Source: Candidatus Moraniibacteriota bacterium (GTDB taxonomy: Bacteria; Patescibacteriota; Minisyncoccia; Moranbacterales; UBA1568). From it: a stretch of DNA of 64,000 bases. This document shows, piece after piece, positions 5,555 through 57,851 of this stretch. The notes below the pieces were generated by a model, which was not told where the DNA came from, searched no databases, and was given only the letters and a program-made list of their open reading frames with translations. How positions within the stretch are numbered: position 1 is the stretch's first letter; each line of letters begins with the position of its first letter. The stretch covers positions 12,717 to 76,716 of the forward strand of contig JBATNG010000045.1 of assembly GCA_049290235.1 (NCBI GenBank). The letters run 5' to 3'. The position numbers were made by a program, and so were the translations under genes.

Positions 5555-6182
5555 GAGGGAGAAGTTCGCGTATCTTGGCCTCGAGCTCGGTGGGTGTGTT
5601 GGCCGTCGGGACACCAGTCGCGATCAAGGCCGAGCGATCGTTCAAGCCCCAGGTGACGGCGATGATCTTTAGGCCGGCTTTTTGGCAGGCATCGATATCG
5701 CGTATCTCATCACCGATATATATGACAGCTGTCTTTTCGAGACCCTCTTTCGTGAGGGTTTTTTCGATCGTCTTTGCCTTGCCGAAGAGTGAGCTCTGAT
5801 ACACAAAATCGATAGTGAGGCCGAATTTCTCGATGAGCGCGAGGACTGTCCCGCGTTCGCTCGAAGAAATGATGCCGATCCGGTAGCCGAGGGCACGGAG
5901 AGCGATGAGGGTTTCATGGATACCAGGAAAGAGCTCGACCTCGGGGACGAGCAACCGATACTCCGCATGACCCCGCTTCAGAATCCTCGGGAGAAGCAAG
6001 ACGCGCCAGCCGAGACGCCGGAACATCACCTGTTTCAGATGGAGCTTGCGCAAGGCAGGTACTTCGTCCGGTCGGATCGGTGCGAACCCGAACTGCGCCG
6101 CCAGCGTATTGTAGATGCGGAGAAAAACCGGCTCAATATCCACCAGCGTGCCATCCAGGTCGAAGATGACGGTCTTGTTCAT
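5520..6182 (-). CDS. HAD-superfamily hydrolase (phosphoglycolate phosphatase-like)
   Basis: N-terminal motif I VIFDLDGTLVD. Later motifs IGIISSSER and AVIYIGDEIRDIDACQKAG. Its 3' end overlaps the GFA gene by 35 nt. Confidence 0.85.
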   Translation of the reverse strand: MNKTVIFDLDGTLVDIEPVFLRIYNTLAAQFGFAPIRPDEVPALRKLHLKQVMFRRLGWRVLLLPRILKRGHAEYRLLVPEVELFPGIHETLIALRALGYRIGIISSSERGTVLALIEKFGLTIDFVYQSSLFGKAKTIEKTLTKEGLEKTAVIYIGDEIRDIDACQKAGLKIIAVTWGLNDRSALIATGVPTANTPTELEAKIRELLPLTNSSHQMVSA

Positions 6183-6243
6183 ATATTTTCAGGATAGCAT
6201 GCCAGACGCGGAGAGACTGGAACCTTTCTTGAATGAAGTTTCT

Positions 6244-6747
6244 TTAGTGAAAGGCTAATGATTCTCCTCTTAGAAGAGAAAAGCCTTTCTCTATAGCTTG
6301 TATTTCTGGATCGTCGCCTTTTTTGTGTTCGGTAAAGACTTTTTGCAGCTCGTCTTCTGCAACCCATTCGAATTGAGAGTGATCTTCAGGATGGAGAGTG
6401 ACATTTTCTAGAGAATCGGCAAATGCTGCATAGTAGATAATTTCTACAGAGTGGGAGCCTTTTATTTCGTTGAGATAGGTAAAAGTAGCAAAGGGGTCTC
6501 CGATGGTTGCCCTCTTGCCGAACTCCTCCATAATCTCACGCTCAAGTCCCTTGACGATATCCTCACCGTAATCAATATGTCCGCCTGGAAGCTCATAGAC
6601 TCCGGGCAAGAATTTTTTGGTATCAGACCGTTTGGGGAGGAATACTTTTTCAATCCCATCAAAGTTGTGATGAATAAAGGCACAAGCCGTGATAACTTGC
6701 TGACCCCGGGCTGGTGTTTCGCTATCGTGTGAGATGTTTTCTACCAT
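6244..6747 (-). CDS. NUDIX hydrolase
   Basis: Nudix box GGHIDYGEDIVKGLEREIMEEFG. Confidence 0.9.
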   Translation of the reverse strand: MVENISHDSETPARGQQVITACAFIHHNFDGIEKVFLPKRSDTKKFLPGVYELPGGHIDYGEDIVKGLEREIMEEFGKRATIGDPFATFTYLNEIKGSHSVEIIYYAAFADSLENVTLHPEDHSQFEWVAEDELQKVFTEHKKGDDPEIQAIEKGFSLLRGESLAFH

Positions 6748-6786
6748 AGGATTGGATTTACTGAGGCTCTGGGACGATGTTGGAAC

Positions 6787-7419
6787 TTATTTGATCAGTT
6801 CGATGAGTAGCGGGAACTCGGTGTAGGGCTGATTGTATGTGGTTGATCCCATATGACCATCATGACGTATGATGAGCCTACCGCCGAGGTTATCTGCCAG
6901 TATCTTCCCCTGAGTAGCATCACAACCCCATGGATCATTATCGGAATTGATGAAGATAAACTCTTCCGCATGGGCTTTAATGACATCCCAGTTTGGCTCT
7001 TTTTCATTCTTACCTCCCGCGTCTTCCCTGAGTAGTTTGGCATGTCCTGAGACGAGGAGTGCTTTCTTAATCTTGATATCAATATTCTCAAGAATACTGA
7101 GGATCACTTGAGCGCCAGCAGAATGACCAATGAGTACGGTTTCCTCAGTGAACGTACCTCCAGAGAGAATGAAAGGAATCCATTCTTTGAGATTTGGGTG
7201 CTCATCATTGGGTAGCTGAGGAAGCCACACCTCGTATCCAAATTTTTCTAATTCATCTTTCAGATACGAAAACCAGAACGCATCCTTTTTTTTCCAGTAC
7301 CGTGGAGTATGATTGCATTTTTCATAAAATAATTTGCTGGGGAGGATGGGAATCTTACTCGCTTCGCTCTTTGAGAACCCCTCGGTTCTCAACACTCGCT
7401 GACTCGCTGCTCTCCGCAA
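6787..7419 (-). CDS. alpha/beta-fold serine hydrolase, YdeN/RBBP9-like (start uncertain)
   Basis: GHSAGA nucleophile-elbow motif. The conserved WYPWLKxELEKxGYEV-like segment is present as FWFSYLKDELEKFGYEVWLPQLP. The N-terminal 40 aa of the long ORF look unlike the family, so the true start may be downstream or frameshifted. Confidence 0.6.
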   Translation of the reverse strand: MRRAASQRVLRTEGFSKSEASKIPILPSKLFYEKCNHTPRYWKKKDAFWFSYLKDELEKFGYEVWLPQLPNDEHPNLKEWIPFILSGGTFTEETVLIGHSAGAQVILSILENIDIKIKKALLVSGHAKLLREDAGGKNEKEPNWDVIKAHAEEFIFINSDNDPWGCDATQGKILADNLGGRLIIRHDGHMGSTTYNQPYTEFPLLIELIK

Positions 7420-7591
7420 CAGGAAAACTTTCGTTTTCCCGACCCCCTTTCCCGTTCGATCCCATCCGTCCCATTATAAACAAAAACACCCGCAAGGGGT
7501 ATCTTTACTTACAAAAGCTGGGCTTATTGGACGTGTTCGGAACGGTTGACTGGAAGAAGATTGCTCAGGAAATGAAGGGTGTCGAACGCTT

Positions 7592-8227
7592 TTATTGTAT
7601 TACTTTCTTTAGATACTGTGCTAATTCCTCAGGTGAATGAAGTATTGCAGTGGCATTTGATTTTTTGAAGCGCTCTGACTCATGAAACCCCCACGTTACT
7701 GCTATCGTATGAATCCCTAGGCTTTTGACCTCCAGAATATCGCCCGTAGTATCTGTGACAAGATACATATCCTGTGGCTGGATGCCATTTTCTCGCATAA
7801 ACTTCTGAATTTTTTCTTCCTTATGCCCTTCTATCTCAGCACCTAATATTTCTCTAAAATAGGTTTCCATGTGCTCACGCTCAAGGAGTTGTTGAATCAC
7901 TGCAGTAAAGTTCGATGAAATGATAATGAGAGTAGCATCCTCGGCTATTTCAGTTACGCATTGTTTCATTCCTAAGAAAAAGTTGATATCTTTTTGATTT
8001 TCCAAATAGGCCTTAACAATGGCTTTCTGGAATATCTGCTTGCGTTCACCTCGAACACCAAAAGCCTCATAATTTTTCCATACGTTGCCTTCAGAAAGTT
8101 CCTTGAGCTGTTCGGCTGTTATAGGTGGCATCCCATGCTCTTGGTGTAAACGTTGGAGGATTCCCAGTATAAATGGAAACGAGTCAATGAATACTCCGTC
8201 AAAATCAAAGAGGATAACTTTTTTCAT
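7592..8227 (-). CDS. HAD-superfamily hydrolase
   Basis: Start taken at the internal Met giving MKKVILFDFDGVFIDS (motif I). C-terminal motif DMYLVTDTTGDILEVKSLG. Confidence 0.8.
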   Translation of the reverse strand: MKKVILFDFDGVFIDSFPFILGILQRLHQEHGMPPITAEQLKELSEGNVWKNYEAFGVRGERKQIFQKAIVKAYLENQKDINFFLGMKQCVTEIAEDATLIIISSNFTAVIQQLLEREHMETYFREILGAEIEGHKEEKIQKFMRENGIQPQDMYLVTDTTGDILEVKSLGIHTIAVTWGFHESERFKKSNATAILHSPEELAQYLKKVIQ

Positions 8228-8244
8228 ACATTCAAAACGATAGC

Positions 8245-8316
8245 TGGGGAGGATGGGATCGAACCATCGCATGGAGGCTTCAAAGGCCCCTGCCTTACCG
8301 CTTGGCTACTCCCCAA
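8245..8316 (-). tRNA. tRNA-Gln (anticodon UUG)
   Basis: The minus-strand sequence TGGGGAGTAGCCAAGCGGTAAGGCAGGGGCCTTTGAAGCCTCCATGCGATGGTTCGATCCCATCCTCCCCAG folds as a cloverleaf. It has a U1:A72 acceptor pair, D-loop AGCGGTAAG, anticodon loop CTTTGAA (TTG), T-arm GATGG-TTCGATC-CCATC and discriminator G. CCA is not encoded. The shape is close to E. coli tRNA-Gln. Confidence 0.9.
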
Positions 8317-10688: not shown

Positions 10689-11450
10689 TTAGCGGCCCTC
10701 AGCGATTTCTTTCTCGATGGCTTCCATATCCTTCACCCAGGCATCGAGCGGGGAGGGTTCAGTGCTCGGGGCAACGACAGGCGCAACAGGTGTTTCAATC
10801 ACAGGATCCGAAGCCGGGGCGGCGAGATCTTTTTTCCAGTCAGTATTAAGGTGACGCTTGCTCGCTGGTTTCACGACCGGGGCGGGAGCACCGAGGGCAC
10901 CTTTCTGGAGGATGTTCTCAATTGCGACCCAAGAGGATGTGAGATCGCGCGGCATCGTGACGGCGACTTCATCACCTGGTTCGGCGCGGAAGTAGGTGAT
11001 CGAAGCGAGGAGTACGCGGAATGGTTCACCCTCGACGACGATATGATAGTTGCCATTCTCGTCTTGACTGACGATACCCAACGCATGGCGCCGATCGATG
11101 GGCCCGATCTGTTTATAGATGAATGAGCCGTCTGGGGTGATGGTGAGCTTCAACATGTCACCTTCGACGAGCTTGGACTTGGATGCATAATTGGCCGGGA
11201 CCGGATACTGCTTGCCGTCGGTACCGAGCATTATTTGACCGTCGAATGTCCCCTCGATCACCGTCCCGAGAGCGTCATCGTCGGACTTCTTCGGGCGACC
11301 GGTCTTTTTCTTGCCTTCGATCTGGAGCAACATCGCCTTGGCACCCTGGATAGTGCGCTCGGCATTCAAAATCATATCCCGGAGAGCCTGGATTTTATTG
11401 CCTTGGTCCGGCGCAGATGATGAGTTCGGTTCAGTGGAAACGTCAACCAT
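10689..11450 (-). CDS. hypothetical protein
   Basis: 253-aa ORF with a Lys-rich segment (KKKTGRPKK) and a Pro/Ala/Val-rich C-terminus. No family recognised. Confidence 0.45.
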   Translation of the reverse strand: MVDVSTEPNSSSAPDQGNKIQALRDMILNAERTIQGAKAMLLQIEGKKKTGRPKKSDDDALGTVIEGTFDGQIMLGTDGKQYPVPANYASKSKLVEGDMLKLTITPDGSFIYKQIGPIDRRHALGIVSQDENGNYHIVVEGEPFRVLLASITYFRAEPGDEVAVTMPRDLTSSWVAIENILQKGALGAPAPVVKPASKRHLNTDWKKDLAAPASDPVIETPVAPVVAPSTEPSPLDAWVKDMEAIEKEIAEGR

Positions 11451-11590: not shown

Positions 11591-11620
11591 TTGACAAAAT
11601 ATGGTAATATGCGTTAATAT
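11591..11620 (+). promoter_or_regulatory. promoter for the sigma-region-4/HARE-HTH gene
   Basis: -35 TTGACA (11591-11596), 18-nt spacer, -10 TAATAT (11615-11620). An overlapping extended -10-like TGGTAATAT (11602-11610) is also present. Confidence 0.5.
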
Positions 11621-11648: not shown

Positions 11649-12734
11649 ATGCTTTTTATGGCTGAAAGAAGGAAACCGATCGATCTCGTCCACCTGTCAA
11701 GCGCCCGCTCTGCCGAAGAGCTGTTGGGGATGCTGCTTTCGTCTTTTCCGGAGCGTTCGGGTGTCATCACTCGTCTGCGTTATGGGGTCACTGATGGCCA
11801 AGAAAAGACGCTAGAGGAAATCGGTACCGTGCACGGCATCACCCGCGAGCGAGTTCGCCAAATCGTCGATGTCATCATGAAGCGGATAAAGGAAATCATG
11901 GTCCGTGCCGATGATCATCGGCTGGTGAAGCAGGTGATCGAGACGGTCGCGGCTGCGGGCGGTATCATGCCGGTGCATGAACTGCTGAGTCGCCTCGGTG
12001 GCGGCAAGACTTCGGAAGAGAAAGCGCTCCTCTCGCTCCTCCCGACCTTCCCTGGACTTCAGATCGACAAGGAAACTGCCAAGCGCAAGTCGATTGTCAC
12101 GGTCAAAGGATTTTCGATGGACAAATGGGAAGCGTTGCATGCGATGGCGGTCAAATTGCTCCAGACGGCCGATGAAGTACAGTCGCCGGAGAATTTCTAT
12201 GCGCTGTATGTGAAACAGACCGGTGACACAGAGCTGACCAAAGACGTTTTCGAAGCGTTCATCGCGCCATCGGCAGAGATTGAGAAGAACGCCTTCGGTC
12301 GTTATGGTTTGAACCATTGGAGCGCTGTGCGTCCGCGCGGGACTCGTGAGCGTGCCCACCTCATCCTCCAGGTGATGAAAAAGCCGCTCCATTTCCGTGA
12401 GATTGCCCGGCTCATCGACGAGCATGGCCTGTACAAAGCCGGGAAGAAAACACATCCGCAAACAGTCCACAATGAACTCATCAAAGATCAGCGTTTTGTT
12501 TTGGTCGGTCGCGGGACCTATGCGCTTTCGGATTGGGGCTTCCAGCCAGGGACAGTCCGCGAAGTGCTCTCGTCTATCTTGAAGGAACATGCGGCACCGA
12601 TGACACGGGAAGAGCTGCTGAAGGCCGTCATGAAAGTCCGCCAGGTGAAACGTTCGACGGTCATCATCAACCTCAATAGCTTTTTCACGAAGGTCGGGAA
12701 GAACATCTATTCGCTTTCAGACAAACAACGCTGA
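11649..12734 (+). CDS. DNA-binding protein with N-terminal sigma-70 region-4-like HTH and C-terminal HARE-HTH-like domain
   Basis: The N-terminal roughly 90 aa contain RLRYGVTDGQEKTLEEIGTVHGITRERVRQI, a textbook sigma-70 region 4.2 helix-turn-helix. The C-terminus has KPLHFREIARLIDEHGLYKAGKKTHPQTVHNELIKDQRFVLVGRGTYALSDWG, matching the HARE-HTH pattern of RNA polymerase delta/RpoE-type proteins. Confidence 0.6.
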   Translation: MLFMAERRKPIDLVHLSSARSAEELLGMLLSSFPERSGVITRLRYGVTDGQEKTLEEIGTVHGITRERVRQIVDVIMKRIKEIMVRADDHRLVKQVIETVAAAGGIMPVHELLSRLGGGKTSEEKALLSLLPTFPGLQIDKETAKRKSIVTVKGFSMDKWEALHAMAVKLLQTADEVQSPENFYALYVKQTGDTELTKDVFEAFIAPSAEIEKNAFGRYGLNHWSAVRPRGTRERAHLILQVMKKPLHFREIARLIDEHGLYKAGKKTHPQTVHNELIKDQRFVLVGRGTYALSDWGFQPGTVREVLSSILKEHAAPMTREELLKAVMKVRQVKRSTVIINLNSFFTKVGKNIYSLSDKQR

Positions 12735-12889
12735 TTTGTTTGCGTCTGCGTCTGTCGGCTAGGTAATTTGTGCGAGGGGATAGGATTTTCTTTCGGACCG
12801 ATGTAGTTCGGACATTTTGCTCCCGAGTGAAAACTCTTTATACTATTGGGAGAGGAGACAGCGTTCTCCATAACGAGTGATATCCCGGC

Positions 12890-14167
12890 ATGGCCGAATT
12901 TTTTTACAACCTGTTCACGATCGCTTCCGTGGCGAGTGATGTGTGGTTCTATATCATCCCATTCGTCTTCTATCCGGTTTTCATGTTCCTCTGGATGGAC
13001 AGTCGGAATGATATATTTGGCAGCAAGATCGAGTGGGTGCTGCTCGAGATCATCGCGCCGAAATTGTTGGAGAAGAGTCCACACCCGATGGAGCTGATTT
13101 ATTCCGGGTTTGCTGGAGTGATCAAGACGTCATCCGCGTATGAGGAATTCATCCTGGGAGAATTACCGGTCACGTTTTCACTCGAACTCGTGAGTACTGA
13201 GGGGAAAGTACACATGTACATCCGGACGCAGAAAGCCTTCCGCAATCTCGTCGAAGCTCATTTTTACGCGCAGTACCCGGATGTCGAGATTGTCGAAGCG
13301 GAGGATTATGCGAAACAGGTGCCGCGGACGGTTCCCAACAAGGACTGGGATTTGTGGGGGACGGAGTTCAAACTCCTCAAGCCCGATCTCTATCCGATAC
13401 GGACCTATAAATTTTTCGAAGAATCGGTGACCGGGAAAATGCTCGACCCGATGGCGGGGTTGATTGAAACCATGGGCAAGCTCGGTCCGGGCCAGCATCT
13501 CTGGCTACAATTCCTCGCGACACCGGTGAAAGAAGACTGGGGGCCCAAGAAAGGTGCGTTGACCATCGAAGAATTTCTCGGTCATGAGGAAGTGGAGAGC
13601 CCGGGGATTTTCGCGCGTGTTTGGCATGACTTGGCGGATGTCTTTCATAATCTCTTCTCCGGCCTGATGGGGAGCGAGTTGACGTGGACCAGTCAGGAGG
13701 AAGCGGCCAAAGCCGAAGAGCAACCCGTCGAATTCCGGCTCACCCCCGGACAGAAGGATATCCTGAAAGCACTCGAGAGTAATATCGGAAAACCGATGTT
13801 CAAAATCAAGATGCGTCATATTTATCTCGGGAAGAAAGAACATTTTTCTAAAGCGACCGGCGTGTCGGCGTTCATCGGGGCGATCAAACAGTTCAATGAT
13901 CTCTCGATGAACAGTATGATCCCGGATGATATGACGAAGACCTATGCGAGCTATGTCATGGTCGAACCGCGCCTCCGGTATCGGCAGCGGCGGCTTTTCC
14001 GGCGGTACATCACACGCGATACTGATCCTCAGGAGAACCGTTTTATGTTTTCGTCTGAGGAAATGGCGACGATCTACCACCTCCCCGACATGCAGGTACT
14101 CGCTCCGTCGCTCTCTCGCGTGATGACGAAGCGAGGTGGCGCGCCGGGCAATTTACCGGTACAATGA
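12890..14167 (+). CDS. hypothetical membrane-anchored protein (partner of the downstream T4CP-like ATPase)
   Basis: 425 aa. Hydrophobic N-terminus (NLFTIASVASDVWFYIIPFVFYPVFMFLWM) predicts 1-2 TM helices. The remainder is soluble with no recognised domain. It is co-directional with, and 74 nt upstream of, the coupling-protein-like gene. Confidence 0.5.
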   Translation: MAEFFYNLFTIASVASDVWFYIIPFVFYPVFMFLWMDSRNDIFGSKIEWVLLEIIAPKLLEKSPHPMELIYSGFAGVIKTSSAYEEFILGELPVTFSLELVSTEGKVHMYIRTQKAFRNLVEAHFYAQYPDVEIVEAEDYAKQVPRTVPNKDWDLWGTEFKLLKPDLYPIRTYKFFEESVTGKMLDPMAGLIETMGKLGPGQHLWLQFLATPVKEDWGPKKGALTIEEFLGHEEVESPGIFARVWHDLADVFHNLFSGLMGSELTWTSQEEAAKAEEQPVEFRLTPGQKDILKALESNIGKPMFKIKMRHIYLGKKEHFSKATGVSAFIGAIKQFNDLSMNSMIPDDMTKTYASYVMVEPRLRYRQRRLFRRYITRDTDPQENRFMFSSEEMATIYHLPDMQVLAPSLSRVMTKRGGAPGNLPVQ

Positions 14168-14241
14168 TGAACACTCCAGTCGTCCTGCTCGGGAGGGTTT
14201 GCGGGTTATAAAGATCAACGCATCTTATTTATCAGAGAAAT

Positions 14242-16377
14242 ATGTCAGAGCTCGATACCAATCCGATCACCGTCTTTGCCAAGACTAATTTCCGAAATCA
14301 GGAGCGAGTTTTCGGAATCAAGGCGGATGATCGCCGTCGGCATATGTATATCCTGGGAAAGACGGGTATGGGCAAGACGAACTTGCTCGAGAATCTGGCT
14401 ATCCAGGATATCCAGCAGGGGCATGGAATCTGTTTCATCGATCCGCACGGTGATGTCGCTCTGAAACTCATCAAGGCGATCCCACCGGAACGTATCAACG
14501 ACGTGATTTATTTCGACCCGGCAGACCAGCATTTTCCGATTGCTTTTAATGTGCTCGAGCAGGTGGGTGCCGACCAGCGTTCAGTCGTCGCATCCGGCCT
14601 TGTCAGTGTTTTTAAGAAAATCTGGGCGGATTCGTGGGGTCCGCGACTTGAATATATCCTCCGCAATGCCATTCTTGCATTGCTCGAATATCCTGGTGCG
14701 ACACTGCTCGGCGTGATGCGCATCCTCGTCGATAAATCGTATCGTGAGCGTGTGATGGAAAAGGTGACGGATCCAGTCGTGAAACAATTCTGGACCGTCG
14801 AATTCGCTGGATGGAATGAGCGTGTGCTTCAAGAAGTCATCTCACCGATTCAGAACAAGGTCGGACAGTTCACGTCCAATAGTTTGATCAGAAATATCAT
14901 CGGACAGCCGACAAGTGCGTTTGACGTGCGGAAAATCATGGACGAGCGGAAGATCCTGATTATGAATCTCGCCAAGGGCAAGATCGGCGAGGACTCGACC
15001 GCACTCCTCGGTGCCATGATGGTCACGAAGATCCAGCAGGCCGCGATGAGCCGAGTCGATACTGTCGAAGAAGACCGGAAGGATTTTTATCTCTATATCG
15101 ACGAGTTTCAGAATTTCGCTACTCTTTCATTTGCGAATATCCTGTCGGAGGCGCGCAAGTACCGACTCTCTCTTATTCTCGCAAATCAGTACATCACCCA
15201 GTTCGAAGAAGAGATTCGTGATGCAATTTTTGGTAACGCTGGGACGATTATATCTTTTCGAGTCGGGGCCATGGATGCAGAGTTTCTCGAGAAGGAATTT
15301 GAGCCTGTGTTCATGTTGAATGATATGGTCAACCTGCCCAAATATCAGATTTATCTGAAGCTCATGATTGATGGGATTGCCGGGGATGCGTTTTCGGCGA
15401 CGACTTTACCGCCAATTCTCGTCGAAACAGAAGGTATCGATGAGAAAGTGATCGCAGTGACCCGCGAACGCTATGCATCCTCGCGAGAAGAAGTGGAGGA
15501 AAAGATCCGGCGTTGGACGGGCATGCTTACGGACGAAGAGAAACAAGCTCTCCGTGCCCCCGTGCCAGTTTCCTCAGCTCCGCGACCGTCGTCTGCCCGG
15601 CCGACTCAACGTACCGCCACAGTCGTTACCCGTCCAGCTGTCCGTGAACGGGTCCCGGCGCATGGGACCGAGAGTATTGTAAAGAGTCGTGACCGGGCGA
15701 CTGATGTCGCGACGCCGCAGCCTGTCACCCAGCCGATCGCGCCGCAGCCGATCAGAGTGAAAGAACCCCAATCTCCAGACGTGGTAACGAAACCAAAGGC
15801 GATCACTGAAGCCATCTCAACACCAACCGCTCCCTTGGTCACTGCTCAATTTGAAAAACCGTCCGTCAGTAAATCTCCAGCACCCGAGGTGGTACCGGTG
15901 GTGATGGCGCCATCTCCGAAGCCAGCGGTCGTACCAGCGATTGAGACGTTTGAAGCTGCAGAGGGAACGCTCGCAACCGAGGCGCCGGTCGAGATCCCTG
16001 AGAAAGTATTGTATCCCGCTGTTTGCGCGACCTGTAGCCTAGAGATCGAAGTCCCTTTTGTACCCGATGCTTCGCGTCCGACTTTTTGTAAGGATTGTCT
16101 GCGCGACTACCAGCGGGCTGTCGCACGGGAACGAAACCAGATAGCTGGGAAACCTGTGGTTGCTGGTGCTTCATCGGCTGAGCCGATACACGAGCAGCCC
16201 CGACGCACGACGGAACACCGTTCCTACGTCCCTGCCCAATATCCTCTGCGGCTTTCCCAGGCGCAATACATCGAACCCAAGAAATTCAAATCGCTCCGCC
16301 GTAAGCCCGATATCAATGTGAGCGCTGTGCGTGCGCTCATCGACGAGGCACGGCAGGGAAAAGACGAGGAGGCTTGA
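14242..16377 (+). CDS. type IV coupling protein-like ATPase (TrwB/TraD/VirD4 family P-loop NTPase) with Pro/Ala/Thr-rich linker and C-terminal zinc-ribbon
   Basis: Walker A ILGKTGMGKTNLL. ICFIDPHGD resembles the IVDPNGD motif of TrwB-type coupling proteins. Walker B with a TraG-D_C-like segment: YLYIDEFQNFATLSFANILSEARKYRLSLILANQYITQFEEEIRDAIFGNAGTIISFRVG. No N-terminal TM segments. The C-terminal 280 aa are low-complexity (P/A/T/V-rich), then CATCSLEIEVPFVPDASRPTFCKDCLRDYQ (CxxC...CxxC). Confidence 0.7.
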   Translation: MSELDTNPITVFAKTNFRNQERVFGIKADDRRRHMYILGKTGMGKTNLLENLAIQDIQQGHGICFIDPHGDVALKLIKAIPPERINDVIYFDPADQHFPIAFNVLEQVGADQRSVVASGLVSVFKKIWADSWGPRLEYILRNAILALLEYPGATLLGVMRILVDKSYRERVMEKVTDPVVKQFWTVEFAGWNERVLQEVISPIQNKVGQFTSNSLIRNIIGQPTSAFDVRKIMDERKILIMNLAKGKIGEDSTALLGAMMVTKIQQAAMSRVDTVEEDRKDFYLYIDEFQNFATLSFANILSEARKYRLSLILANQYITQFEEEIRDAIFGNAGTIISFRVGAMDAEFLEKEFEPVFMLNDMVNLPKYQIYLKLMIDGIAGDAFSATTLPPILVETEGIDEKVIAVTRERYASSREEVEEKIRRWTGMLTDEEKQALRAPVPVSSAPRPSSARPTQRTATVVTRPAVRERVPAHGTESIVKSRDRATDVATPQPVTQPIAPQPIRVKEPQSPDVVTKPKAITEAISTPTAPLVTAQFEKPSVSKSPAPEVVPVVMAPSPKPAVVPAIETFEAAEGTLATEAPVEIPEKVLYPAVCATCSLEIEVPFVPDASRPTFCKDCLRDYQRAVARERNQIAGKPVVAGASSAEPIHEQPRRTTEHRSYVPAQYPLRLSQAQYIEPKKFKSLRRKPDINVSAVRALIDEARQGKDEEA

Positions 16378-21365: not shown

Positions 21366-21743
21366 ATGGAAAAGAAACACGGCATCATGCTCGCGGTTGG
21401 TCTCGTCGTTATCGTTGGCGGTCTCATCTGGTGGGGGCTGCATGAAGACGGAACAAAAGCGTCACTCGATCAGTCCGTCACGACCTATTTTTATGGCGAG
21501 ACCTGTCCGCATTGTCTCGATGTTCAGAAATTCCTCGATGAGAATAAAGTCGCGGAAAAGTTCAGTTTCGTGAAGCGTGAAGTGTGGAGCAACCGGTCCA
21601 ATGCGGCGCTGATGCGCGAGGCGGCCGGCATCTGTGCCTTGAATAGCCAAGAGATCGCTGTGCCGTTTGTTTTTTCAGCCGGCCAGTGCCTGGTCGGGAC
21701 GCCCAAAGTCATCGAATTTTTCAAACAAAAAGCCGGTATCTGA
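21366..21743 (+). CDS. membrane-anchored thioredoxin-fold protein (CxxC)
   Basis: N-terminal TM helix MLAVGLVVIVGGLIWWGL, then YFYGETCPHCLDVQKFL, a CPHC redox motif in a glutaredoxin/thioredoxin-like context. Confidence 0.6.
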   Translation: MEKKHGIMLAVGLVVIVGGLIWWGLHEDGTKASLDQSVTTYFYGETCPHCLDVQKFLDENKVAEKFSFVKREVWSNRSNAALMREAAGICALNSQEIAVPFVFSAGQCLVGTPKVIEFFKQKAGI

Positions 21744-21978
21744 ACTCATGCGCGAAATCGTCCCGCCCAAAGCGAAGCCTATATCGCACGCCAAGATGCT
21801 CTTCGATGGCGTAGCGCATGGTCGCGAATACTGCTCACCGCGGCCGGGTTCGGCACCACGTCCACTTGTTTCACCGGCGATGATTCGGGCGAGGCGTCAA
21901 TTGGATGCGGTGTTGTTGAGAGAATCAACTGCTTCTCACAGCCGTTTTTTCGGGTTCCAGCGTCGGTGGAAGAAATGG

Positions 21979-22737
21979 ATGCTCTTTCGGCGGGTGTTCG
22001 TGATTTCGCGTCGCATCAGTCGTCGTGTCGGACGGCTATTGCCAGCGCCAGGGAATCTGTCGCCGAAAAAAGCGCTCTATGCCTCGCTCTTCGCGGGGGT
22101 GAGTTTCGGCATGGTGTCGATGTCGGTCATCCAGGATGTGAGCGGAGATGAAGCCAATGCGGGTTCGCCGGCACCGGTGGCGGCCGTGGCTGAGTCGGAT
22201 GAAACCTCGAAAATCGCCAAAGAACTCTCCGAAGAGAAGAAGAAGTATGATCCGAATGACGATCTCTTTCTCCAGTTCTTCAGCGAGGCTGAGAAGGAGG
22301 AATACCGCGATCAGATCCAGGAGCTCGTCAAAGGCTATCCGATCGAAGACATGCTGCCGTACATCCTCGAGAAAGACCGGATCGTGGCAGCTTTCCTCAT
22401 CGGTATCGGCAAGAAAGAGAGCAATTGGGGGAAACGGGTCCCGGTGCTCGATGGTCAGGACTGCTTCAATTACTGGGGCTATCGGGGGGTGCGGCGATTG
22501 ATGGGAACAGGTGGGCATACCTGTTTCAATAGCCGCAAAGACGCGGTCGATACGGTCGCACTTCGGATCGAGTCGCTCATCTACTCGTCCAAAATCGACA
22601 CCCCGGCCAAGATGATTATCTGGAAGTGCGGCTACAGCTGTGACGGCCACTCTCGAGAGAGCGTCCGGAAATGGATTGCCGACGTGGACATGTATTTCAA
22701 GGAGTTGAACCAAGCTGAGGGTGGTCCGATCGATTAG
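21979..22737 (+). CDS. secreted Cys-containing protein, paralog 1 (possible lysozyme-like/Rpf-like fold), start uncertain
   Basis: The C-terminal 150 aa align with the downstream paralog: KGYPIE.M.P.I.E.DR..A.LIGI.KKESNWGKRVP...DCFNYWGY.G...GH.CF...IWKCG.SC..HS.ESVRKWI.DVD.YF. The ATG at 21979 has GGTGGA 9 nt upstream and yields an Arg-rich n-region followed by the hydrophobic ALYASLFAGVSFGMVSMSVI. The ATG at 21748 is possible but gives Arg-rich junk. Confidence 0.55.
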   Translation: MLFRRVFVISRRISRRVGRLLPAPGNLSPKKALYASLFAGVSFGMVSMSVIQDVSGDEANAGSPAPVAAVAESDETSKIAKELSEEKKKYDPNDDLFLQFFSEAEKEEYRDQIQELVKGYPIEDMLPYILEKDRIVAAFLIGIGKKESNWGKRVPVLDGQDCFNYWGYRGVRRLMGTGGHTCFNSRKDAVDTVALRIESLIYSSKIDTPAKMIIWKCGYSCDGHSRESVRKWIADVDMYFKELNQAEGGPID

Positions 22738-22789
22738 CTCGGTCAAAATCCTGGAGTCTTGACTTACTGATTTTATATGTCGTAGTATC

Positions 22790-22816
22790 GACTGCCTTAG
22801 CGGGCAGTTTTATTGC
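22790..22816 (+). terminator. Rho-independent terminator after paralog 1
   Basis: ACTGCC-TTAGC-GGGCAGT followed by TTTTATTGCTTG. Confidence 0.5.
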
Positions 22817-22943
22817 TTGTATAAGCCAGAAAGTCGTATTTTTTTGGCAAAAAACCTTTGACCGAGCGAGCTGAAAATGCTATCCTCAGGTTTGTGTCCC
22901 AAGTGGGATTCGCCAGAAAAAGATGTATTCTTAACGTTTTTCT

Positions 22944-23699
22944 ATGCGTATTTTCCGGGGAGTTTCGGTCGTCTGGCAGCGCAAGAATCAAGGTCGAATA
23001 CTCCAACCTTGCCAGGCCCTCAGCCTCGTTGGTCTGTTGTTTCTTTCCTTTAGTCCGGTAGCAGTCGGGTCAAGTAATCCAGACACGGACGTGCAGCCGA
23101 ATTCCGCGAGTCGTCAGGTGAGTCTCTGTGATTGGCAGCGGGACTATGACTTCTTCACCGATACGGCGAAGACAGAGAAAGTCGAGTCGTCACCCTGCGA
23201 ACAAGTATTCCCTCAGTCGGCGGGATCCAGGAGTGCCGACTCGTCACAGGAGAAGACAGTGAGCCATGAAAAAAAAGCGTTCGAGGCCGAGCTCCGAGCC
23301 ATCGTCAAGGGCTACCCGATCGAAGTGATGGTCCCTGTGATTGCGGAGTATGATCGGGACATCGCGGGTCTCATCGTCGGTATCGCCAAGAAAGAGAGTA
23401 ATTGGGGCAAACGCGTCCCGCGGACATCCGGCGGGGACGACTGTTTCAATTATTGGGGGTACAAAGGGGCAGGCGCGCGCGGTGTCGCGATGGGGCATGG
23501 CTGTTTCGGCGAATCAGCGGAGGCGGTGCACGCGATCGGTGGTCGATTACAAGAGCTCACGCGACTTCGGCAGACGAGCGAACCAGCCAATTTGACCATC
23601 TGGAAATGTGGTTCGTCTTGCGCGAGTCATTCGCCTGAAAGCGTCCGGAAGTGGATCTCGGATGTCGACTTGTATTTCCGCGCCATCGCTCGGAAATGA
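22944..23699 (+). CDS. secreted Cys-containing protein, paralog 2
   Basis: 251 aa. Signal-peptide-like ILQPCQALSLVGLLFLSFSPVAVGSS. It shares the KGYPIEVMVPVIAEYDRDIAGLIVGIAKKESNWGKRVP...DCFNYWGYKG...GHGCF...IWKCGSSCASHSPESVRKWISDVDLYF core with paralog 1. Confidence 0.6.
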   Translation: MRIFRGVSVVWQRKNQGRILQPCQALSLVGLLFLSFSPVAVGSSNPDTDVQPNSASRQVSLCDWQRDYDFFTDTAKTEKVESSPCEQVFPQSAGSRSADSSQEKTVSHEKKAFEAELRAIVKGYPIEVMVPVIAEYDRDIAGLIVGIAKKESNWGKRVPRTSGGDDCFNYWGYKGAGARGVAMGHGCFGESAEAVHAIGGRLQELTRLRQTSEPANLTIWKCGSSCASHSPESVRKWISDVDLYFRAIARK

Positions 23700-23759
23700 C
23701 AGTGTCGAGTCCTGGGGCCGGATGAGGTTGAGGTGGCCGCGGTGACGATCGGGTAGGGT

Positions 23760-23797
23760 GCTCCACGGTTACATTGGTGGGGTGGTATACTAGAGAC
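23760..23797 (+). promoter_or_regulatory. extended -10 promoter (TGGTATACT) for the permease gene
   Basis: TGGTATACT at 23783-23791, about 20 nt upstream of the ATG at 23811. The same 9-mer recurs at 43146-43154 and 52177-52185. Confidence 0.5.
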
Positions 23798-23810
23798 AAA
23801 AGAAAATCCC

Positions 23811-24749
23811 ATGCACTGGCTTACTTTCGCGCTTGCGGGCTATTTTTTCAATGCGGTCACCGTTCTCTTCGATAAGTTTCTCCTGGCTGGCCGGATCAAG
23901 GAGCCGGTAGTGTATGCCTTTTTCGTTTCTATCCTGTCGCTCTTCGCGATTGTTCTCGTACCATTCGGTTTTCAACCGATCCCGTGGCAGACAGTGGTCG
24001 TGTTCGTGATCTCCGGTATGCTGTTCCTCTACGGCTTGGTGGCGTTTTATAATGCCGTGCAGCGCAGTGAAATCTCGCGTGTTGCACCGCTGGTCGGTAT
24101 CACGGTTTCCGTCATCGCGGGTGTCGCCTCGCTCGCGTTCGGTCCGGCGGCCTATGTCACGCTGTCTCCCGGCCACTTCTTCTCGCTGCTGCTGATCCTG
24201 GCTGGGGCTTTCCTCATCGCGTTTGACCTCCCCCTGAAGAAGAATGATGCGCTCATGAAGTCGACCCTCTTGGCCGGGGCACTCATGGCGCTCTCGCTCC
24301 TCTTCTTGAAGACCGGTTATCGGAATGCGGATTTCGTGAACGGCCTCCTCTGGTCGCGGCTGGGATTCATCATTGGTGGCTTCAGTCTCTTCATCATTCC
24401 CGACTATCGCCGCGTTATCCTGGAGAACACGCGTGGCCTCTCTTCATCCAATCGGCGCGACGTCTCAACCGGGATTCTCTTTGTCCTCAACAAGATCTTC
24501 GGCGGGATTGCGACTTTTTTCCTGACTTACGCGGCCTTCCTCGGGCCGGTGACCTTTATCCAGGCGTTGAACGGCGTCCAGTATGCCTTTGTGCTTGTCC
24601 TCGCGATCCCGCTCGCGTTCCGCTACCCGAAGGTCTTCGAGGAGAAGCTCTACTTCTGGGATTGGTTCCAAAAGGGGTTGGCCGTCATCCTTATCGCGCT
24701 TGGGATGTGGCTGGCCGTGACCCAGGGGGCCGATTTCCTCTTTCTCTAA
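23811..24749 (+). CDS. polytopic membrane protein, possible DMT/EamA-like permease
   Basis: 312 aa with about 10 TM helices in two halves. No sharp motif, so the family assignment is tentative. Confidence 0.45.
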   Translation: MHWLTFALAGYFFNAVTVLFDKFLLAGRIKEPVVYAFFVSILSLFAIVLVPFGFQPIPWQTVVVFVISGMLFLYGLVAFYNAVQRSEISRVAPLVGITVSVIAGVASLAFGPAAYVTLSPGHFFSLLLILAGAFLIAFDLPLKKNDALMKSTLLAGALMALSLLFLKTGYRNADFVNGLLWSRLGFIIGGFSLFIIPDYRRVILENTRGLSSSNRRDVSTGILFVLNKIFGGIATFFLTYAAFLGPVTFIQALNGVQYAFVLVLAIPLAFRYPKVFEEKLYFWDWFQKGLAVILIALGMWLAVTQGADFLFL

Positions 24750-24753
24750 ACGA

Positions 24754-25812
24754 ATGGATAGTGAAATGAAAAATCTACCTCCAGCCCCCATTCGTTCACT
24801 GTGGCGCGGCGTGATCAAAGTGATCGGGTACACGCTCCTCGGATGTATTCTCCTGGTCGTGCTTCTCTTTGGGTACTTCAATCTGCCCGGACCGGCGCCG
24901 CGCGAAGACATCCATCTTGGCATGACTTTTTCATCGCGCTATGCGACTGATCTGGGTTTGGATTGGCACGAAACCTATCTTGCCCTCCTCAATGACATCG
25001 GGGTGAAGAAACTTCGGCTGCCAGTCTATTGGGATCTCACCGAGAAAGAAAAAGGGGTATATGATTTTACTGATCTCGACTGGCAGTTAGCTGAAGCCAA
25101 AAAAAATGGTGTCACTGTGATCCTGACGGTGGGTATCAAAGTACCCCGCTGGCCGGAGTGTCATATCCCACCGTGGGCTCGGGACGATACGGCACTGCGC
25201 CAGGCGGGGATACTCCGTTTCATCCGCGAGACTATCGCTCGATACCGGGACGATCCGACCGTCGTGAAGTGGCAGGTTGAGAACGAGCCATTTCTCAGTT
25301 TCGGCGTCTGTCCTGCTTTTGATGTTTCCTTTCTCGAGCAAGAAGTCGCGCTCGTGAAGACGCTGGACCGAACGCGACCGGTACTCCTGACCGATAGCGG
25401 CGAGTTGTCCGTCTGGTTCGGGGCCGCGAGCCGTGGCGATGAATTCGGTACGACACTGTACCGGGATATTTACAGCAAACATGCCGGCGGTTATTTCACG
25501 TATCCGGTCGGGCCCAATTTCTTCTGTGCCAAAGAATTGCTCGTCCGACTGCTCACCGATCAAAAACATTTTTCAGTCATCGAACTCCAGGCTGAGCCGT
25601 GGGCGAGCGGCTGGGTCGCCAATGTGCCGCTCGAGGAACAGTTCATCACGATGAATGAAAAGCGTCTCGAGGACAATGTCACCTATGCGAGGCGCGTCGG
25701 ATTCGAGGATATCTACCTCTGGGGCGGCGAGTGGTGGTATTGGCTGAAAACCAAGAAAGAGTATCCAGCTGTTTGGGAGAAGGGGAGAGAGTTATTCCAG
25801 CGGTATCCGTAA
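24754..25812 (+). CDS. membrane-anchored glycoside hydrolase (clan GH-A TIM-barrel, cellulase/mannanase-like)
   Basis: N-terminal TM helix, then a TIM-barrel-like domain with KWQVENEP (the NEP acid/base motif of clan GH-A) and a later ELQAEPW region consistent with a nucleophile Glu. Confidence 0.5.
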   Translation: MDSEMKNLPPAPIRSLWRGVIKVIGYTLLGCILLVVLLFGYFNLPGPAPREDIHLGMTFSSRYATDLGLDWHETYLALLNDIGVKKLRLPVYWDLTEKEKGVYDFTDLDWQLAEAKKNGVTVILTVGIKVPRWPECHIPPWARDDTALRQAGILRFIRETIARYRDDPTVVKWQVENEPFLSFGVCPAFDVSFLEQEVALVKTLDRTRPVLLTDSGELSVWFGAASRGDEFGTTLYRDIYSKHAGGYFTYPVGPNFFCAKELLVRLLTDQKHFSVIELQAEPWASGWVANVPLEEQFITMNEKRLEDNVTYARRVGFEDIYLWGGEWWYWLKTKKEYPAVWEKGRELFQRYP

Positions 25813-56111: not shown

Positions 56112-57851
56112 TCAGTCAGTTATCTCAAAGAGGATGGCGTCTCGCGTGACGGTCTGTCTGATGGGCCGGGCGAAAGGTCTCGGGGCGGTGAGTGTCGGCC
56201 AGACGAACGAGAGTACTTCGACGGGGAGTAGGCGGTCTCCGAAGGTGGCAGCGAATTGACCGACGGTGTCCTCGGTCGTCAACAGATAGACGCGGTCAAA
56301 GGCGTTCCGATCGAGTCGGGCATAATCTTCGGGATTGAAGAAATAGGCTGCGGATTTCCCATCGAGGCTCATGAGCGGTCCGGCGATCATCGCAAAGGGG
56401 TCACCGGAGGATTCACGATCGATGAGGATGAGATCACGGGCGGTGAATTGGTCACCGAAGTTTTCCGCCTGAGCGCGGAGGGTCTGGTACTCGATCACTG
56501 AGAGGGCCTGGTAGGCTGGCCAGCACTGGAGGACAAAGAGCAAGCCGAAGCCGATGAGGGCGATAGTGTGTTTCCGAGGAGTGTGGATTCTCTCGATCAT
56601 CGACTGCCACAATACAATGGTCGCGAGCAAGAAAAGTGGGAAGAGCGTAAAGACATAGCGGCGCAAGAGCCACGGGTGATCGTCGGAGATATGACCATCG
56701 AAGAGATAGACGAAGGTCGGGAGTGCGAGCAGCACCGGGATGAGAAGTGCGAAACGGCGTCGCATGATACCGAAGGCAAGCGATGCCAAGCCGAGAATGA
56801 AGACAGGAAACAGCCCGTAGGAAATGAGGATCGGTCCGAGTCGTGGCTCTCCGCTCCCTGTGCCGGCGATGCCGAGGGTGTGCCAATATTTTAGGGCCGC
56901 TTTGCCGATCATGGTGTAGAACGGCAGATTCATGAAAAGATCGCGGAGGAAGAGAAAGCCGAGGAAGAGGAGGACGGGGATGGCCCAGACCTTGGGGAGG
57001 GCGAAGAGGTGGGCGCGCAGTTTGGGATGCCAGAGGATAAACCCGAGCGCGAGCGGCGCGATGACGAAGCCCTCGATGCGCGTCAGGGCGAGGAGAAACC
57101 CGGTGATGAGAAGACAAGGGAGGACTCGTCGATCATCTTCGCGCGCGAGGCGGATGAGTGCGACCGTGAGCGTGAGAAAGAGGAGGAGCGCGAGATTTTC
57201 CGTCAGCGTCATCTGGGTGAGCCAGACCGTGAAGAAGGATGTCGAGAAGAGAGCTGTCCCAAAGAGCGCGGTGTGGCGGGTCACGAAGAGGGAGCCGAGA
57301 TCGAAGAATGTCCAACTGGAGAGAATGAAGAGCAGCGCGTTGGCGATAAGGAGACCGGTCGGGCCGAACCACTGCACAAAGAGCGCGAGGTATGAGATGT
57401 AGCCGAGTGGGAATTGAGTGATGAGTGCCCCGCTTTCGGTGTAGGAGAAGCCGGGGAAGTTGAGTGCGCGACCAGGACCATAGATGGCAAAGAAAGCGTC
57501 AGAGACAGGTGTCCGGAAGGCGAGCTCATGACCGTGCGCGAGTTCCCAGGCGGCGAGAGCGATTGATCCTTGATCGCGGCCGGTGAAGACAGTTGGCTCG
57601 GTTCGAAGGGCGATGAGTAGGGCGAAGAGCACCAGCGCACCGATGAGACCGAGTCGTGCCCAGTCACATTCCTGATACAGCACGAATAATGCCAGACCAA
57701 AACCGCCCAAGAGCAGTCCACCAGCCACCCAGGTCAGTGCCGGATAGAACCAGCCGAACAGCGCGAGCGCGAGCGCGAGGATGAGGGCGAGGACGAAACC
57801 AGAGAGGGCGATGAGCCAAGGCGAGCGGGTCCAGAGACGGGATGGATTCAT
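56112..57851 (-). CDS. large polytopic membrane protein, putative GT-C-fold glycosyltransferase (ArnT/PMT-like)
   Basis: 579 aa with about 12 TM helices in the N-terminal two-thirds and a soluble C-terminal domain. The topology suggests dolichyl/undecaprenyl-phosphate-sugar-dependent transferases. Assignment by architecture only. Confidence 0.4.
   Translation of the reverse strand: MNPSRLWTRSPWLIALSGFVLALILALALALFGWFYPALTWVAGGLLLGGFGLALFVLYQECDWARLGLIGALVLFALLIALRTEPTVFTGRDQGSIALAAWELAHGHELAFRTPVSDAFFAIYGPGRALNFPGFSYTESGALITQFPLGYISYLALFVQWFGPTGLLIANALLFILSSWTFFDLGSLFVTRHTALFGTALFSTSFFTVWLTQMTLTENLALLLFLTLTVALIRLAREDDRRVLPCLLITGFLLALTRIEGFVIAPLALGFILWHPKLRAHLFALPKVWAIPVLLFLGFLFLRDLFMNLPFYTMIGKAALKYWHTLGIAGTGSGEPRLGPILISYGLFPVFILGLASLAFGIMRRRFALLIPVLLALPTFVYLFDGHISDDHPWLLRRYVFTLFPLFLLATIVLWQSMIERIHTPRKHTIALIGFGLLFVLQCWPAYQALSVIEYQTLRAQAENFGDQFTARDLILIDRESSGDPFAMIAGPLMSLDGKSAAYFFNPEDYARLDRNAFDRVYLLTTEDTVGQFAATFGDRLLPVEVLSFVWPTLTAPRPFARPIRQTVTRDAILFEITD

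Follow-up and report, generated by a model that had tools for sequence, protein, structure and literature searches.

A conserved three-gene module of Patescibacteria with a putative membrane-tethered ATPase divided between a VirB4-like and a VirD4-like protein

The subject of this analysis is a set of three consecutive genes in a 64,000-nt stretch of DNA from Candidatus Moraniibacteriota bacterium (assembly GCA_049290235.1, contig JBATNG010000045.1, positions 12,717–76,716, forward strand; the whole stretch is referred to here as the window). They raise a question: what is the role of a motor that resembles the coupling proteins of type IV secretion systems (T4SSs) among genes that are otherwise of the housekeeping kind, and with which partners would it act? 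The three open reading frames (ORFs) encode proteins of 361 aa (P1, 11649–12734), 425 aa (P2, 12890–14167) and 711 aa (P3, 14242–16377). All of them lie on the + strand, with spacers of 155 nt between P1 and P2 and 74 nt between P2 and P3, exactly as given in a first-pass annotation of the sequence, which had described three co-directional ORFs with short gaps. The nearest homologues of P2 and P3, among the matches listed, all come from metagenome-assembled genomes of Candidatus Moranbacteria/Moraniibacteriota, which identifies the window as chromosomal DNA of Patescibacteria, the ultra-small CPR bacteria.

We favor, with a probability of roughly 0.6, the interpretation that a single membrane-tethered ring ATPase of the VirB4/VirD4 kind is divided between P2 and P3, which form a vertically inherited, near-universal chromosomal module of Patescibacteria. 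The architecture, a VirB4-like front half combined with a VirD4-like motor, is well supported; the assembly, substrate and pathway of this motor we infer.

A scan with the ATPase alignment, taking one genome per species, yielded at least 590 loci. The best 80 were kept and, together with two other loci (L001 and L002 in our numbering) and the window, make up 83 sequences in which ORFs were called and searched with profiles. By label, the best 80 loci belong to Moran-, Buchanan-, Uhr-, Kerfeld-, Falkow-, Komeili-, Nealson- and Doudnabacteria and other Patescibacteria, and their ATPases are 60–88% identical to that of the window across classes. In 69 of the 83 sequences, the gene directly upstream of the ATPase gene belongs to the P2 family (DUF8128, see below), at a median distance of 9 nt; a P1 gene is found upstream of DUF8128 in 64 (median gap 93.5 nt). 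The next commonest neighbor family, PPIase, occurs in 34 loci, while a DivIC/FtsB-like gene is present downstream in 23. Since no flanking gene family is found in more than 34 loci, P1-DUF8128-ATPase is the only conserved unit, and the many homologues of all three genes, combined with their conserved order, indicate that the association is not due to chance. The neighborhood analysis proposed in the first-pass annotation thus reveals a gene order that is maintained in related genomes across many classes of Patescibacteria. The median identity to the window proteins is 63% for the ATPase, compared to 35% for DUF8128 and 33% for P1, so the motor is far more tightly constrained than its partners. 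In the ATPase tree, loci with similar taxonomic labels cluster together.

P3 is, judged from its sequence, a coupling-protein-like NTPase with intact Walker A and Walker B motifs. Its ATPase region (residues 29–434, nt 14326–15543) contains the Walker A motif GKTGMGKT (residues 39–46, nt 14356–14379), which is present in all 83 sequences, and the Walker B motif YLYIDE (residues 283–288, nt 15088–15105) as part of the segment YLYIDEFQNF (residues 283–292). Two other motifs, FIDPHGD and LILANQ, are located at residues 65–71 and 311–316. The Pfam families TrwB_AAD_bind (residues 29–323, E 8e-9) and TraG-D_C (residues 282–349, E 1.5e-6) match P3, and both match each of 20 family members scanned, five of which also match T4SS-DNA_transf. 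The best long NCBIfam match is to the VirD4-like CD1115 family (residues 28–342), which includes TrsK of pGO1. VirB4/VirD4, FtsK/SpoIIIE and HerA belong to one ATPase superfamily; within it, no FtsK or HerA family is matched at E 1e-3 by the 20 members apart from DUF87, which is confined to the P-loop, and FtsK_SpoIIIE does not match P3 itself or these 20 relatives. In P3, the HerA family DUF87 covers only the P-loop (residues 32–71) and HerA_C reaches E 0.057, the remaining HerA matches being likewise P-loop-confined or not significant.

Comparisons with individual proteins lead to the same placement. Searches against proteins of solved structure, with the single sequence as well as with a profile, gave significant matches only to TrwB and DotL (HerA, E 0.2–0.66). 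With hhalign, P3 can be aligned to TraD of the F plasmid over 259 columns that start at Walker A and continue past Walker B, whereas VirB4 proteins align with the ATPase at the P-loop only (65 columns for F TraC, 40 columns for TrsE of pGO1). The structures of P2 and P3 were predicted as single proteins. The P3 model is poor, having been obtained from a shallow alignment (predicted local distance difference test, pLDDT, 55), and its Foldseek ranking is indicative only: the ten best hits are all DotL, TrwB or Cagβ, HerA appears at rank 31, and no VirB4 is found among the top 50. The model places an all-helical block (residues 113–234, pLDDT 54–86) between Walker A and Walker B, a region spanned by the TrwB_AAD_bind alignment and one where TrwB has its all-alpha domain; P3 may therefore carry a comparable helical insert. 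The proposal of the first-pass annotation that these motifs place the ATPase with the type IV coupling proteins, rather than with FtsK or HerA, thus agrees with the Pfam hidden Markov model (HMM), solved-structure and Foldseek comparisons. Its observation that P3 has no transmembrane segment also stands, since the highest 19-residue hydropathy is 1.53; a hydrophobic segment is similarly missing in 72 of the 83 ATPase homologues.

The C-terminal part of P3 contains elements not mentioned in the first-pass annotation. A treble-clef zinc finger (CxxC-x17-CxxC, residues 590–621, nt 16009–16104; zf_Tbcl_2, E 1.7e-9) follows a Pro/Ala/Ser-rich linker and is present in 62 of the 83 sequences. It is followed by a basic tail recognized as conserved in the alignment (PKKFK...VRALI, residues 679–700, nt 16276–16341). 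Such C-terminal motifs, located after disordered linkers, differ among lineages: PKKFK...VRALI is found in Moranbacteria and ...PGE.I.F in many others.

An alternative explanation is that the module provides anti-phage defense, of a type related to MADS or HerA. The match of P3 to mad8, a PADLOC model of MADS defense (E 2.2e-19), is stronger than that to Pfam TrwB_AAD_bind; P3 also matches the HerA and DndH models weakly, and the sigma region 4 of P1 matches MzaA. However, mad8 may be a generic P-loop model, as the HMMs of the mad series derive from HHpred alignments to solved structures, and the module is not adjoined by a methyltransferase, a nuclease or any other gene of the MADS, MZA or Dnd systems. 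Defense islands are usually patchy in their distribution, whereas this module is near-universal, vertically inherited and fixed in position. We consider a defensive role the least credible of the explanations discussed here. Assignment to a MADS/Mad8 system specifically was rejected; no other MADS-type gene (methyltransferase, kinase or specificity subunit) is adjacent.

P2 begins with a membrane anchor (residues 8–36, nt 12911–12997), its sole hydrophobic stretch by hydropathy. Basic residues in the family are enriched after the anchor (median 2) and not before it (median 0), which favors a cytoplasmic location of the protein body. P2 has no match in the Pfam and NCBIfam copies searched; PF26449 (DUF8128) is not included in that Pfam copy. 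This family is, however, the precomputed assignment of all 120 homologues among the matches listed, and PF26449:DUF8128 is also the label given in L001 and L002 to the syntenic gene, so that P2, from its relatives, is a member of DUF8128. The N-terminal anchor claimed for P2 in the first-pass annotation is therefore retained, while its "no recognisable domain" gives way to a named domain, albeit one of unknown function. DUF8128 is a large family: 1,628 clusters at 50% identity reach E 1e-3.

The AlphaFold2 model of P2, computed with 40 homologues, is of moderate confidence (pLDDT 70.7, predicted template modeling score 0.68). Its Foldseek hits are headed by TrwK/VirB4 chains, which occupy ranks 1–6 (E 2.7e-4 to 1.9e-3) and are followed by ESX-3 chains. 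The body of P2 is thus predicted to adopt the fold of the non-ATPase N-terminal domain of VirB4, a comparison for which the aligned range in TrwK was not printed. Together, P2 and P3 have the layout of VirB4 (TrwK of R388), in which a ring ATPase comes after an N-terminal domain associated with the membrane. The difference lies in the motor: the fold of P2 matches TrwK, but P3 resembles VirD4 and not VirB4, of which only the P-loop can be aligned (TraC, TrsE). A precedent for the division into two genes exists in pGO1, where TrsD, corresponding to the N-terminal portion of VirB4, is encoded separately and directly upstream of the ATPase TrsE.

Like P3, P2 ends in a conserved peptide. KRGGAPGNLP (residues 414–423, nt 14129–14158) conforms to a motif, roughly [KR][KR]G.(A/P)P.NLP[IVF], that lies within the last 14 residues of 56 of 65 DUF8128 sequences. 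The NLP peptide is often located after a long disordered linker and is sometimes duplicated, and some linkers contain a repeated FDYD.D.FE.RFA motif. The 150 best DUF8128 cluster representatives include no fused DUF8128-ATPase protein; their long C-terminal extensions are disordered linkers that terminate in the NLP motif. From their sequences, the C-terminal peptides of DUF8128 and of the ATPase look like tethered docking peptides.

The connection between P2 and P3 is most evident in phages, where homologues of both occur in the same order within one polypeptide. The PHROG family phrog_5156 (824 positions, no known function) is matched by P2 at positions 78–359 (E 3e-9) and by P3 at 408–817 (E 4e-62). 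In gp156 of Bacillus phage G (825 aa), residues 7–321 correspond to DUF8128 (hhalign probability 98.3%, E 1.7e-14, 315 columns) and residues ∼373–755 to P3 (tblastn, 29% identity, E 5e-42). The relationship to gp27.4 of phage SPO1 (906 aa) is weaker, with an ATPase match at E 4e-16 and a DUF8128 hhalign probability of 75.6% (E 2.4e-5). When P2 and P3 were concatenated, phmmer produced one alignment with gp156 that runs across the junction (query 370–826, target 279–761), and likewise a single alignment with gp27.4 across the C-terminus of P2 and the N-terminus of P3. By the logic of gene fusion, this collinearity with single-chain proteins indicates that P2 and P3 function together as a unit. 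The suggestion in the first-pass annotation that the membrane protein is a split-off anchor for the ATPase is strongly supported, both by the VirB4-like fold predicted for P2 and by the fused phage proteins.

The phage proteins differ from the window version in several respects other than being fused. Their ATPase parts are only 23–29% identical, they are phage-borne, and no P1 counterpart was identified with them. The DUF8128 part of gp156 begins after the position of the membrane anchor, its one hydrophobic segment being internal, near residue 183, and gp27.4 has no strongly hydrophobic segment. These relatives were detected solely with the PHROG profile and by way of the ATPase part; tblastn of DUF8128 against plasmid and phage collections gave no match. 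The gene of gp156 (L088:2885-5359), annotated only as "ATP-binding/permase; MsbA-like", adjoins and comes after that of gp155, a VirB4/TraG-P-loop-like ATPase. In SPO1, gp27.4 is encoded (L089:1747-4464) on the strand opposite to gene 27 and the sigma factor gene 28, at a distance of ∼2 kb. Neither protein has an assigned function.

Such homologues could mean that the module is a domesticated or resident remnant of a phage or other mobile element, since the phrog_5156 family covers both halves and three matches were found in a viral contig collection. Two of the latter are distant ATPases without DUF8128; the distant relatives in IMG/VR contigs (L085:5506-7281, L085:8153-9574 and L086:4208-5461) are 25–31% identical, and DUF8128 was not detected nearby. 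We regard this origin as highly improbable. The flanks of the module are housekeeping genes, and neither an integrase nor phage genes were seen among the 33 window ORFs scanned (the long ORFs between 1.5 and 29.7 kb and ten of the longest beyond 30 kb). The ATPase tree follows taxonomic labels, VirD4-like homologues are reported in 96% of the genomes of the phylum (PMC12102498), and the ATPase is very strongly conserved; the DUF8128 search of plasmid and phage collections mentioned above also argues against it.

The distribution of the ATPase has been described before. Quiñonero-Coronel et al. (2025) reported 5,713 VirD4-like homologues in 2,918 of 3,035 Patescibacteria genomes, of which only 148 are near virB4, compared to VirB4 in 2,417 of these genomes and nearly absent relaxases (109 homologues in 103 genomes), and considered that the VirD4-like proteins may have been "exapted for other functions" (PMC12102498). 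These homologues belong to the same ATPase family as P3, with the same Pfam matches, and are similarly located away from virB4. In the epibiont Southlakia, Wang et al. (2023) described an essential T4SS cluster without a recognizable coupling protein (PMC10633639). The supplement of that study lists SEML1_0294, a gene of 1,050 nt for a Sigma70_r4 and HARE-HTH protein, scored essential, and, as the next gene downstream on that strand, SEML1_0293, which is separated from it by 155 nt and was scored non-essential (PMC10633639). The order of the two genes is that of P1 and the ATPase in the window. SEML1_0293 has 921 aa, with TrwB_AAD_bind at residues 402–719 and the P-loop domain from residue 361 (PMC10633639); compared to P3 it has ∼370 extra N-terminal residues, which match DUF8128 in size, and it is probably a fused form. 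Transposon read counts for SEML1_0293 drop from 5,817 to 2,940 to 1,372, in the order in which the unlabeled columns are read, while those of its neighbors remain level (PMC10633639). The DUF8128 partner, the VirB4-like fold, the fusions and the three-gene unit are not described in the text and supplements of PMC12102498 and PMC10633639, as far as these were available to us. The first-pass view that the architecture is not a described system thus holds, within the same limits, for the three-gene unit, but not for the ATPase, whose VirD4-like homologues are already in print (PMC12102498).

Compared to the type IV coupling proteins (TrwB of R388, VirD4, TraD, DotL/IcmO and Cagβ), which provide the best sequence, profile and fold matches to its core and share the TraG-D_C segment, P3 differs in having no N-terminal transmembrane domain of its own, a partner that resembles the N-terminal domain of VirB4, and a C-terminal zinc finger. 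It is also chromosomal, vertically inherited and very strongly conserved, and shows no linkage to genes for relaxases or mating-pair formation. Of the 33 window ORFs scanned, a set in which small pilin-like ORFs were not searched exhaustively, none encodes a relaxase, VirB4, VirB11 or a pilus protein; genes for VirB3, VirB6 and VirB8, as well as a NurA-like neighbor, were found neither in these ORFs nor among the conserved neighbors in the 83 sequences. The module is not a conjugative element, which bears out the first-pass annotation on the absence of relaxase, VirB4, VirB11 and pilin genes from its surroundings, with the same reservation for small pilins.

The main open alternative retains the architecture proposed above and differs only in partner and pathway. 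According to this explanation, a patescibacterial T4SS and pilus system encoded elsewhere in the genome has its detached coupling ATPase in P2 and P3; P2 would dock the motor onto a VirB3/VirB4/VirB6 membrane complex, to which DNA or effector proteins would be fed. The Southlakia T4SS lacks a recognizable coupling protein (PMC10633639), and both VirB4 (2,417 of 3,035 genomes) and VirD4-like homologues (2,918) are widespread (PMC12102498). The ATPase is coupling-protein-like, its VirB4-like N-terminal partner domain could make VirB4-type contacts, and the fused gp156 of phage G adjoins the VirB4/TraG-P-loop-like gp155. In Agrobacterium, VirD4 is dispensable for pilus biogenesis, and a non-essential coupling protein beside an essential, pilus-forming T4SS would thus not be contradictory. 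On the other hand, an ATPase identity of 63% across classes is unusually high compared to typical coupling proteins; the homologues occur in more genomes than VirB4 does, and T4SS genes were found neither in the scanned window ORFs nor in the conserved neighborhood. The small number of homologues near virB4 (148 of 5,713) and the near absence of relaxases from the phylum (109 homologues in 103 genomes) point in the same direction (PMC12102498). On balance, we think that a detached T4SS coupling ATPase is possible but unlikely.

A membrane-tethered ATPase of the FtsK-HerA superfamily, with a DivIC/FtsB-like gene downstream in 23 loci, might instead be a chromosome-segregation or partition motor that replaces FtsK. 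Southlakia, however, has a canonical and essential FtsK with 4TM, alpha, motor and gamma domains, while its coupling-protein-like gene is not essential (PMC10633639), and FtsK_SpoIIIE does not match P3 or its relatives. Replacement of FtsK was rejected on the grounds that Southlakia keeps the canonical protein, and the partition-like motor considered in the first-pass annotation appears very unlikely. The Southlakia supplement also mentions a ComF-family (ComFC-like) protein but no ComFA (PMC10633639). That P3 substitutes for ComFA in DNA uptake is speculation, and it is countered by the different transposon sequencing (Tn-seq) read profiles of comEC and SEML1_0293.

The third protein of the module, P1, combines a sigma-70 region 4 helix-turn-helix domain (Sigma70_r4, residues 30–82, nt 11736–11894, E 8.5e-10) with a middle region, a HARE-HTH domain (residues 234–296, nt 12348–12536, E 7e-15) and a C-terminal winged-helix-like part, the two Pfam matches bearing out the fusion recognized in the first-pass annotation. 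Both domains are conserved in an alignment of 61 homologues from related loci. The best relatives of solved structure are the region 4 domains of primary sigma factors (SigA, E 2.7e-12), with which P1 shares the region 4.2 helix-turn-helix. No match to sigma regions 1–3 was found in Pfam or NCBIfam, all sigma-factor NCBIfam scores being far below their cut-offs; P1 is therefore not a sigma factor. The HARE-HTH is shared with the RNA polymerase delta subunit RpoE, although the score against the delta family TIGR04567 (38.9 bits) is below the cut-off of 42. P1 has extra winged-helix-like domains compared to both, and probably binds DNA or RNA polymerase. Since SEML1_0294 is essential in Southlakia but the neighboring ATPase gene is not, P1 must hold an essential role beyond the motor.

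P1 could thus be unrelated to the motor, an essential RNA-polymerase-associated or promoter-binding factor that merely shares an old operon or neighborhood with P2 and P3. The difference in essentiality is consistent with this, as are the closeness of its sigma region 4 to primary sigma factors, its near-threshold score against the delta family (38.9 versus 42 bits), and the absence of P1 beside the pair in L066 and L080. The spacer is also longer between P1 and DUF8128 than between DUF8128 and the ATPase (median 93.5 versus 9 nt) and, in the window, contains a weak terminator-like hairpin (12792–12812, + strand; a 7-pair stem with 3 GC pairs), found in a consensus scan at a level not above shuffled expectation. 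P1 and P2-P3 may accordingly be partly separate transcription units. However, the adjacency is maintained in 64 of 83 sequences while all other neighbors vary, and it extends to Saccharimonadia (SEML1_0294/SEML1_0293), which are taken as a deep split within Patescibacteria. Persistence of this kind usually reflects co-regulation or interaction. An unrelated P1 is a plausible explanation, but we judge it to fall short of even odds.

Several observations weigh against the proposal that P2 and P3 form one split ATPase with P1 as an associate. That P2 binds P3 is something we infer, the structure predictions having covered single proteins, and no channel partner is encoded near the module, where VirB3, VirB6 and VirB8 genes are likewise missing. 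The link between P2 and VirB4 is at the fold level only, with the aligned range in TrwK not reported: the DUF8128 profile had no match among solved sequences even at E 10, and hhalign of DUF8128 with F TraC (VirB4) and pGO1 TrsD detected no similarity. The helical insert and the Foldseek ranking of P3, derived from a model with a pLDDT of 55, are only indicative. In 12 loci, which form one ATPase clade, no DUF8128 is found within 7 kb and the ATPase gene follows nrdR-nrdD-nrdG. P1 is absent in some loci, L066 and L080 having the order secDF, DUF8128, ATPase, and its essentiality in Southlakia, next to a non-essential ATPase, suggests that P1 is more than a servant of the motor. On the supporting side, in 11 of the 12 nrd-linked loci a different, conserved small protein (81–124 aa, one transmembrane segment) is encoded directly upstream of the ATPase (L036, L038, L044, L046, L047, L048, L054, L059, L062, L071 and L081; for example, L054:6639-6986). 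This single-pass protein may be an alternative membrane tether.

If P2 and P3 are indeed two halves of one machine, P2 would be membrane-anchored and have its VirB4-like domain on the cytoplasmic side, and this domain would dock P3 at the membrane in the way the N-terminal domain does within a single VirB4 chain; the tethered C-terminal ...G.(A/P)P.NLP peptide of P2 might also dock P3. P3 would form a hexameric NTPase ring in which hydrolysis moves a polymer, most likely DNA or a DNA-protein complex, so that translocation of nucleic acid at the membrane is the probable function. This choice of cargo is a guess from the coupling-protein ancestry, the zinc finger, the DNA-binding P1 and the DNA-handling context of the phages. 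Binding of a substrate or partner could involve the helical insert, zinc finger and basic tail, and P1 would be a DNA- or RNA-polymerase-binding partner or regulator of the module, in addition to its own essential role.

We tentatively consider a bolder version, which is rather improbable as a whole: P2 and P3, along with the fused phage relatives, would represent a third lineage of the VirB4/VirD4 family, a living intermediate with a VirB4-type N-terminal domain and a VirD4-type motor, which in Patescibacteria became a T4SS-independent, membrane-tethered DNA or nucleoprotein translocase with an essential P1-type protein. If true, it may serve the acquisition or handling of DNA at the interface between epibiont and host. 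A chimeric architecture of this kind is relevant to the evolutionary divergence of VirB4 and VirD4. The reported VirD4-like homologues in ∼96% of the genomes of the phylum and an ATPase identity of ∼63% across classes suggest a core motor, in a phylum that makes up a large share of uncultured bacteria and in which the majority of conserved genes lack a known role. An orphan annotation is thereby turned into a testable model, with a VirB4-like-fold partner, equivalence to a single phage protein and an essential P1-type gene alongside. For two phages that have been studied intensively, the model also offers an initial structural view of genes that lacked an explanation (SPO1 gp27.4 and phage G gp156). 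Southlakia epibionticum is genetically tractable, and the available Tn-seq data already cover both counterparts.

Upstream of P1, a promoter-like site (TTGACA, an 18-nt spacer and TAATAT; 11591–11620, + strand) lies ∼30 nt 5' of the gene and scores 10/12 in a consensus scan; the region contains no more sites of this type than expected after shuffling, making it weak evidence. Further 5', a divergent 253-aa ORF without a Pfam match (10689–11450, − strand) keeps its position in nine sequences, namely the window and eight of the closest Moranbacteria loci. The other genes of the window are housekeeping genes and include dnaX, a GtrA-like gene, mnmA, an HhH-GPD glycosylase gene, lgt and xseA, as well as SUF genes and genes for HtrA-like proteases, a class II tRNA synthetase, a Clp-type ATPase and glycosyltransferases, and one tRNA-Gln.

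Three other regions of the window stand out. The G+C content of positions 6001–8000, which contain NUDIX, serine hydrolase and HAD genes, is 0.45, compared to 0.52–0.60 elsewhere; this stretch ends near the tRNA-Gln (8243–8315) and could be an acquired island. At 21667–25812 (+ strand), four consecutive ORFs encode proteins of 356, 251, 312 and 352 aa, the first three without a Pfam match and the fourth with a weak match to Glyco_hydro_42 that is below the family cut-off. Finally, the ORF at 56112–57851 (− strand) encodes a multi-pass membrane protein of 579 aa that is highly hydrophobic and has no Pfam match at E 1e-4; it is located next to glycosyltransferase genes, in surroundings of unusually high GC skew (0.23) and AT skew (0.24).

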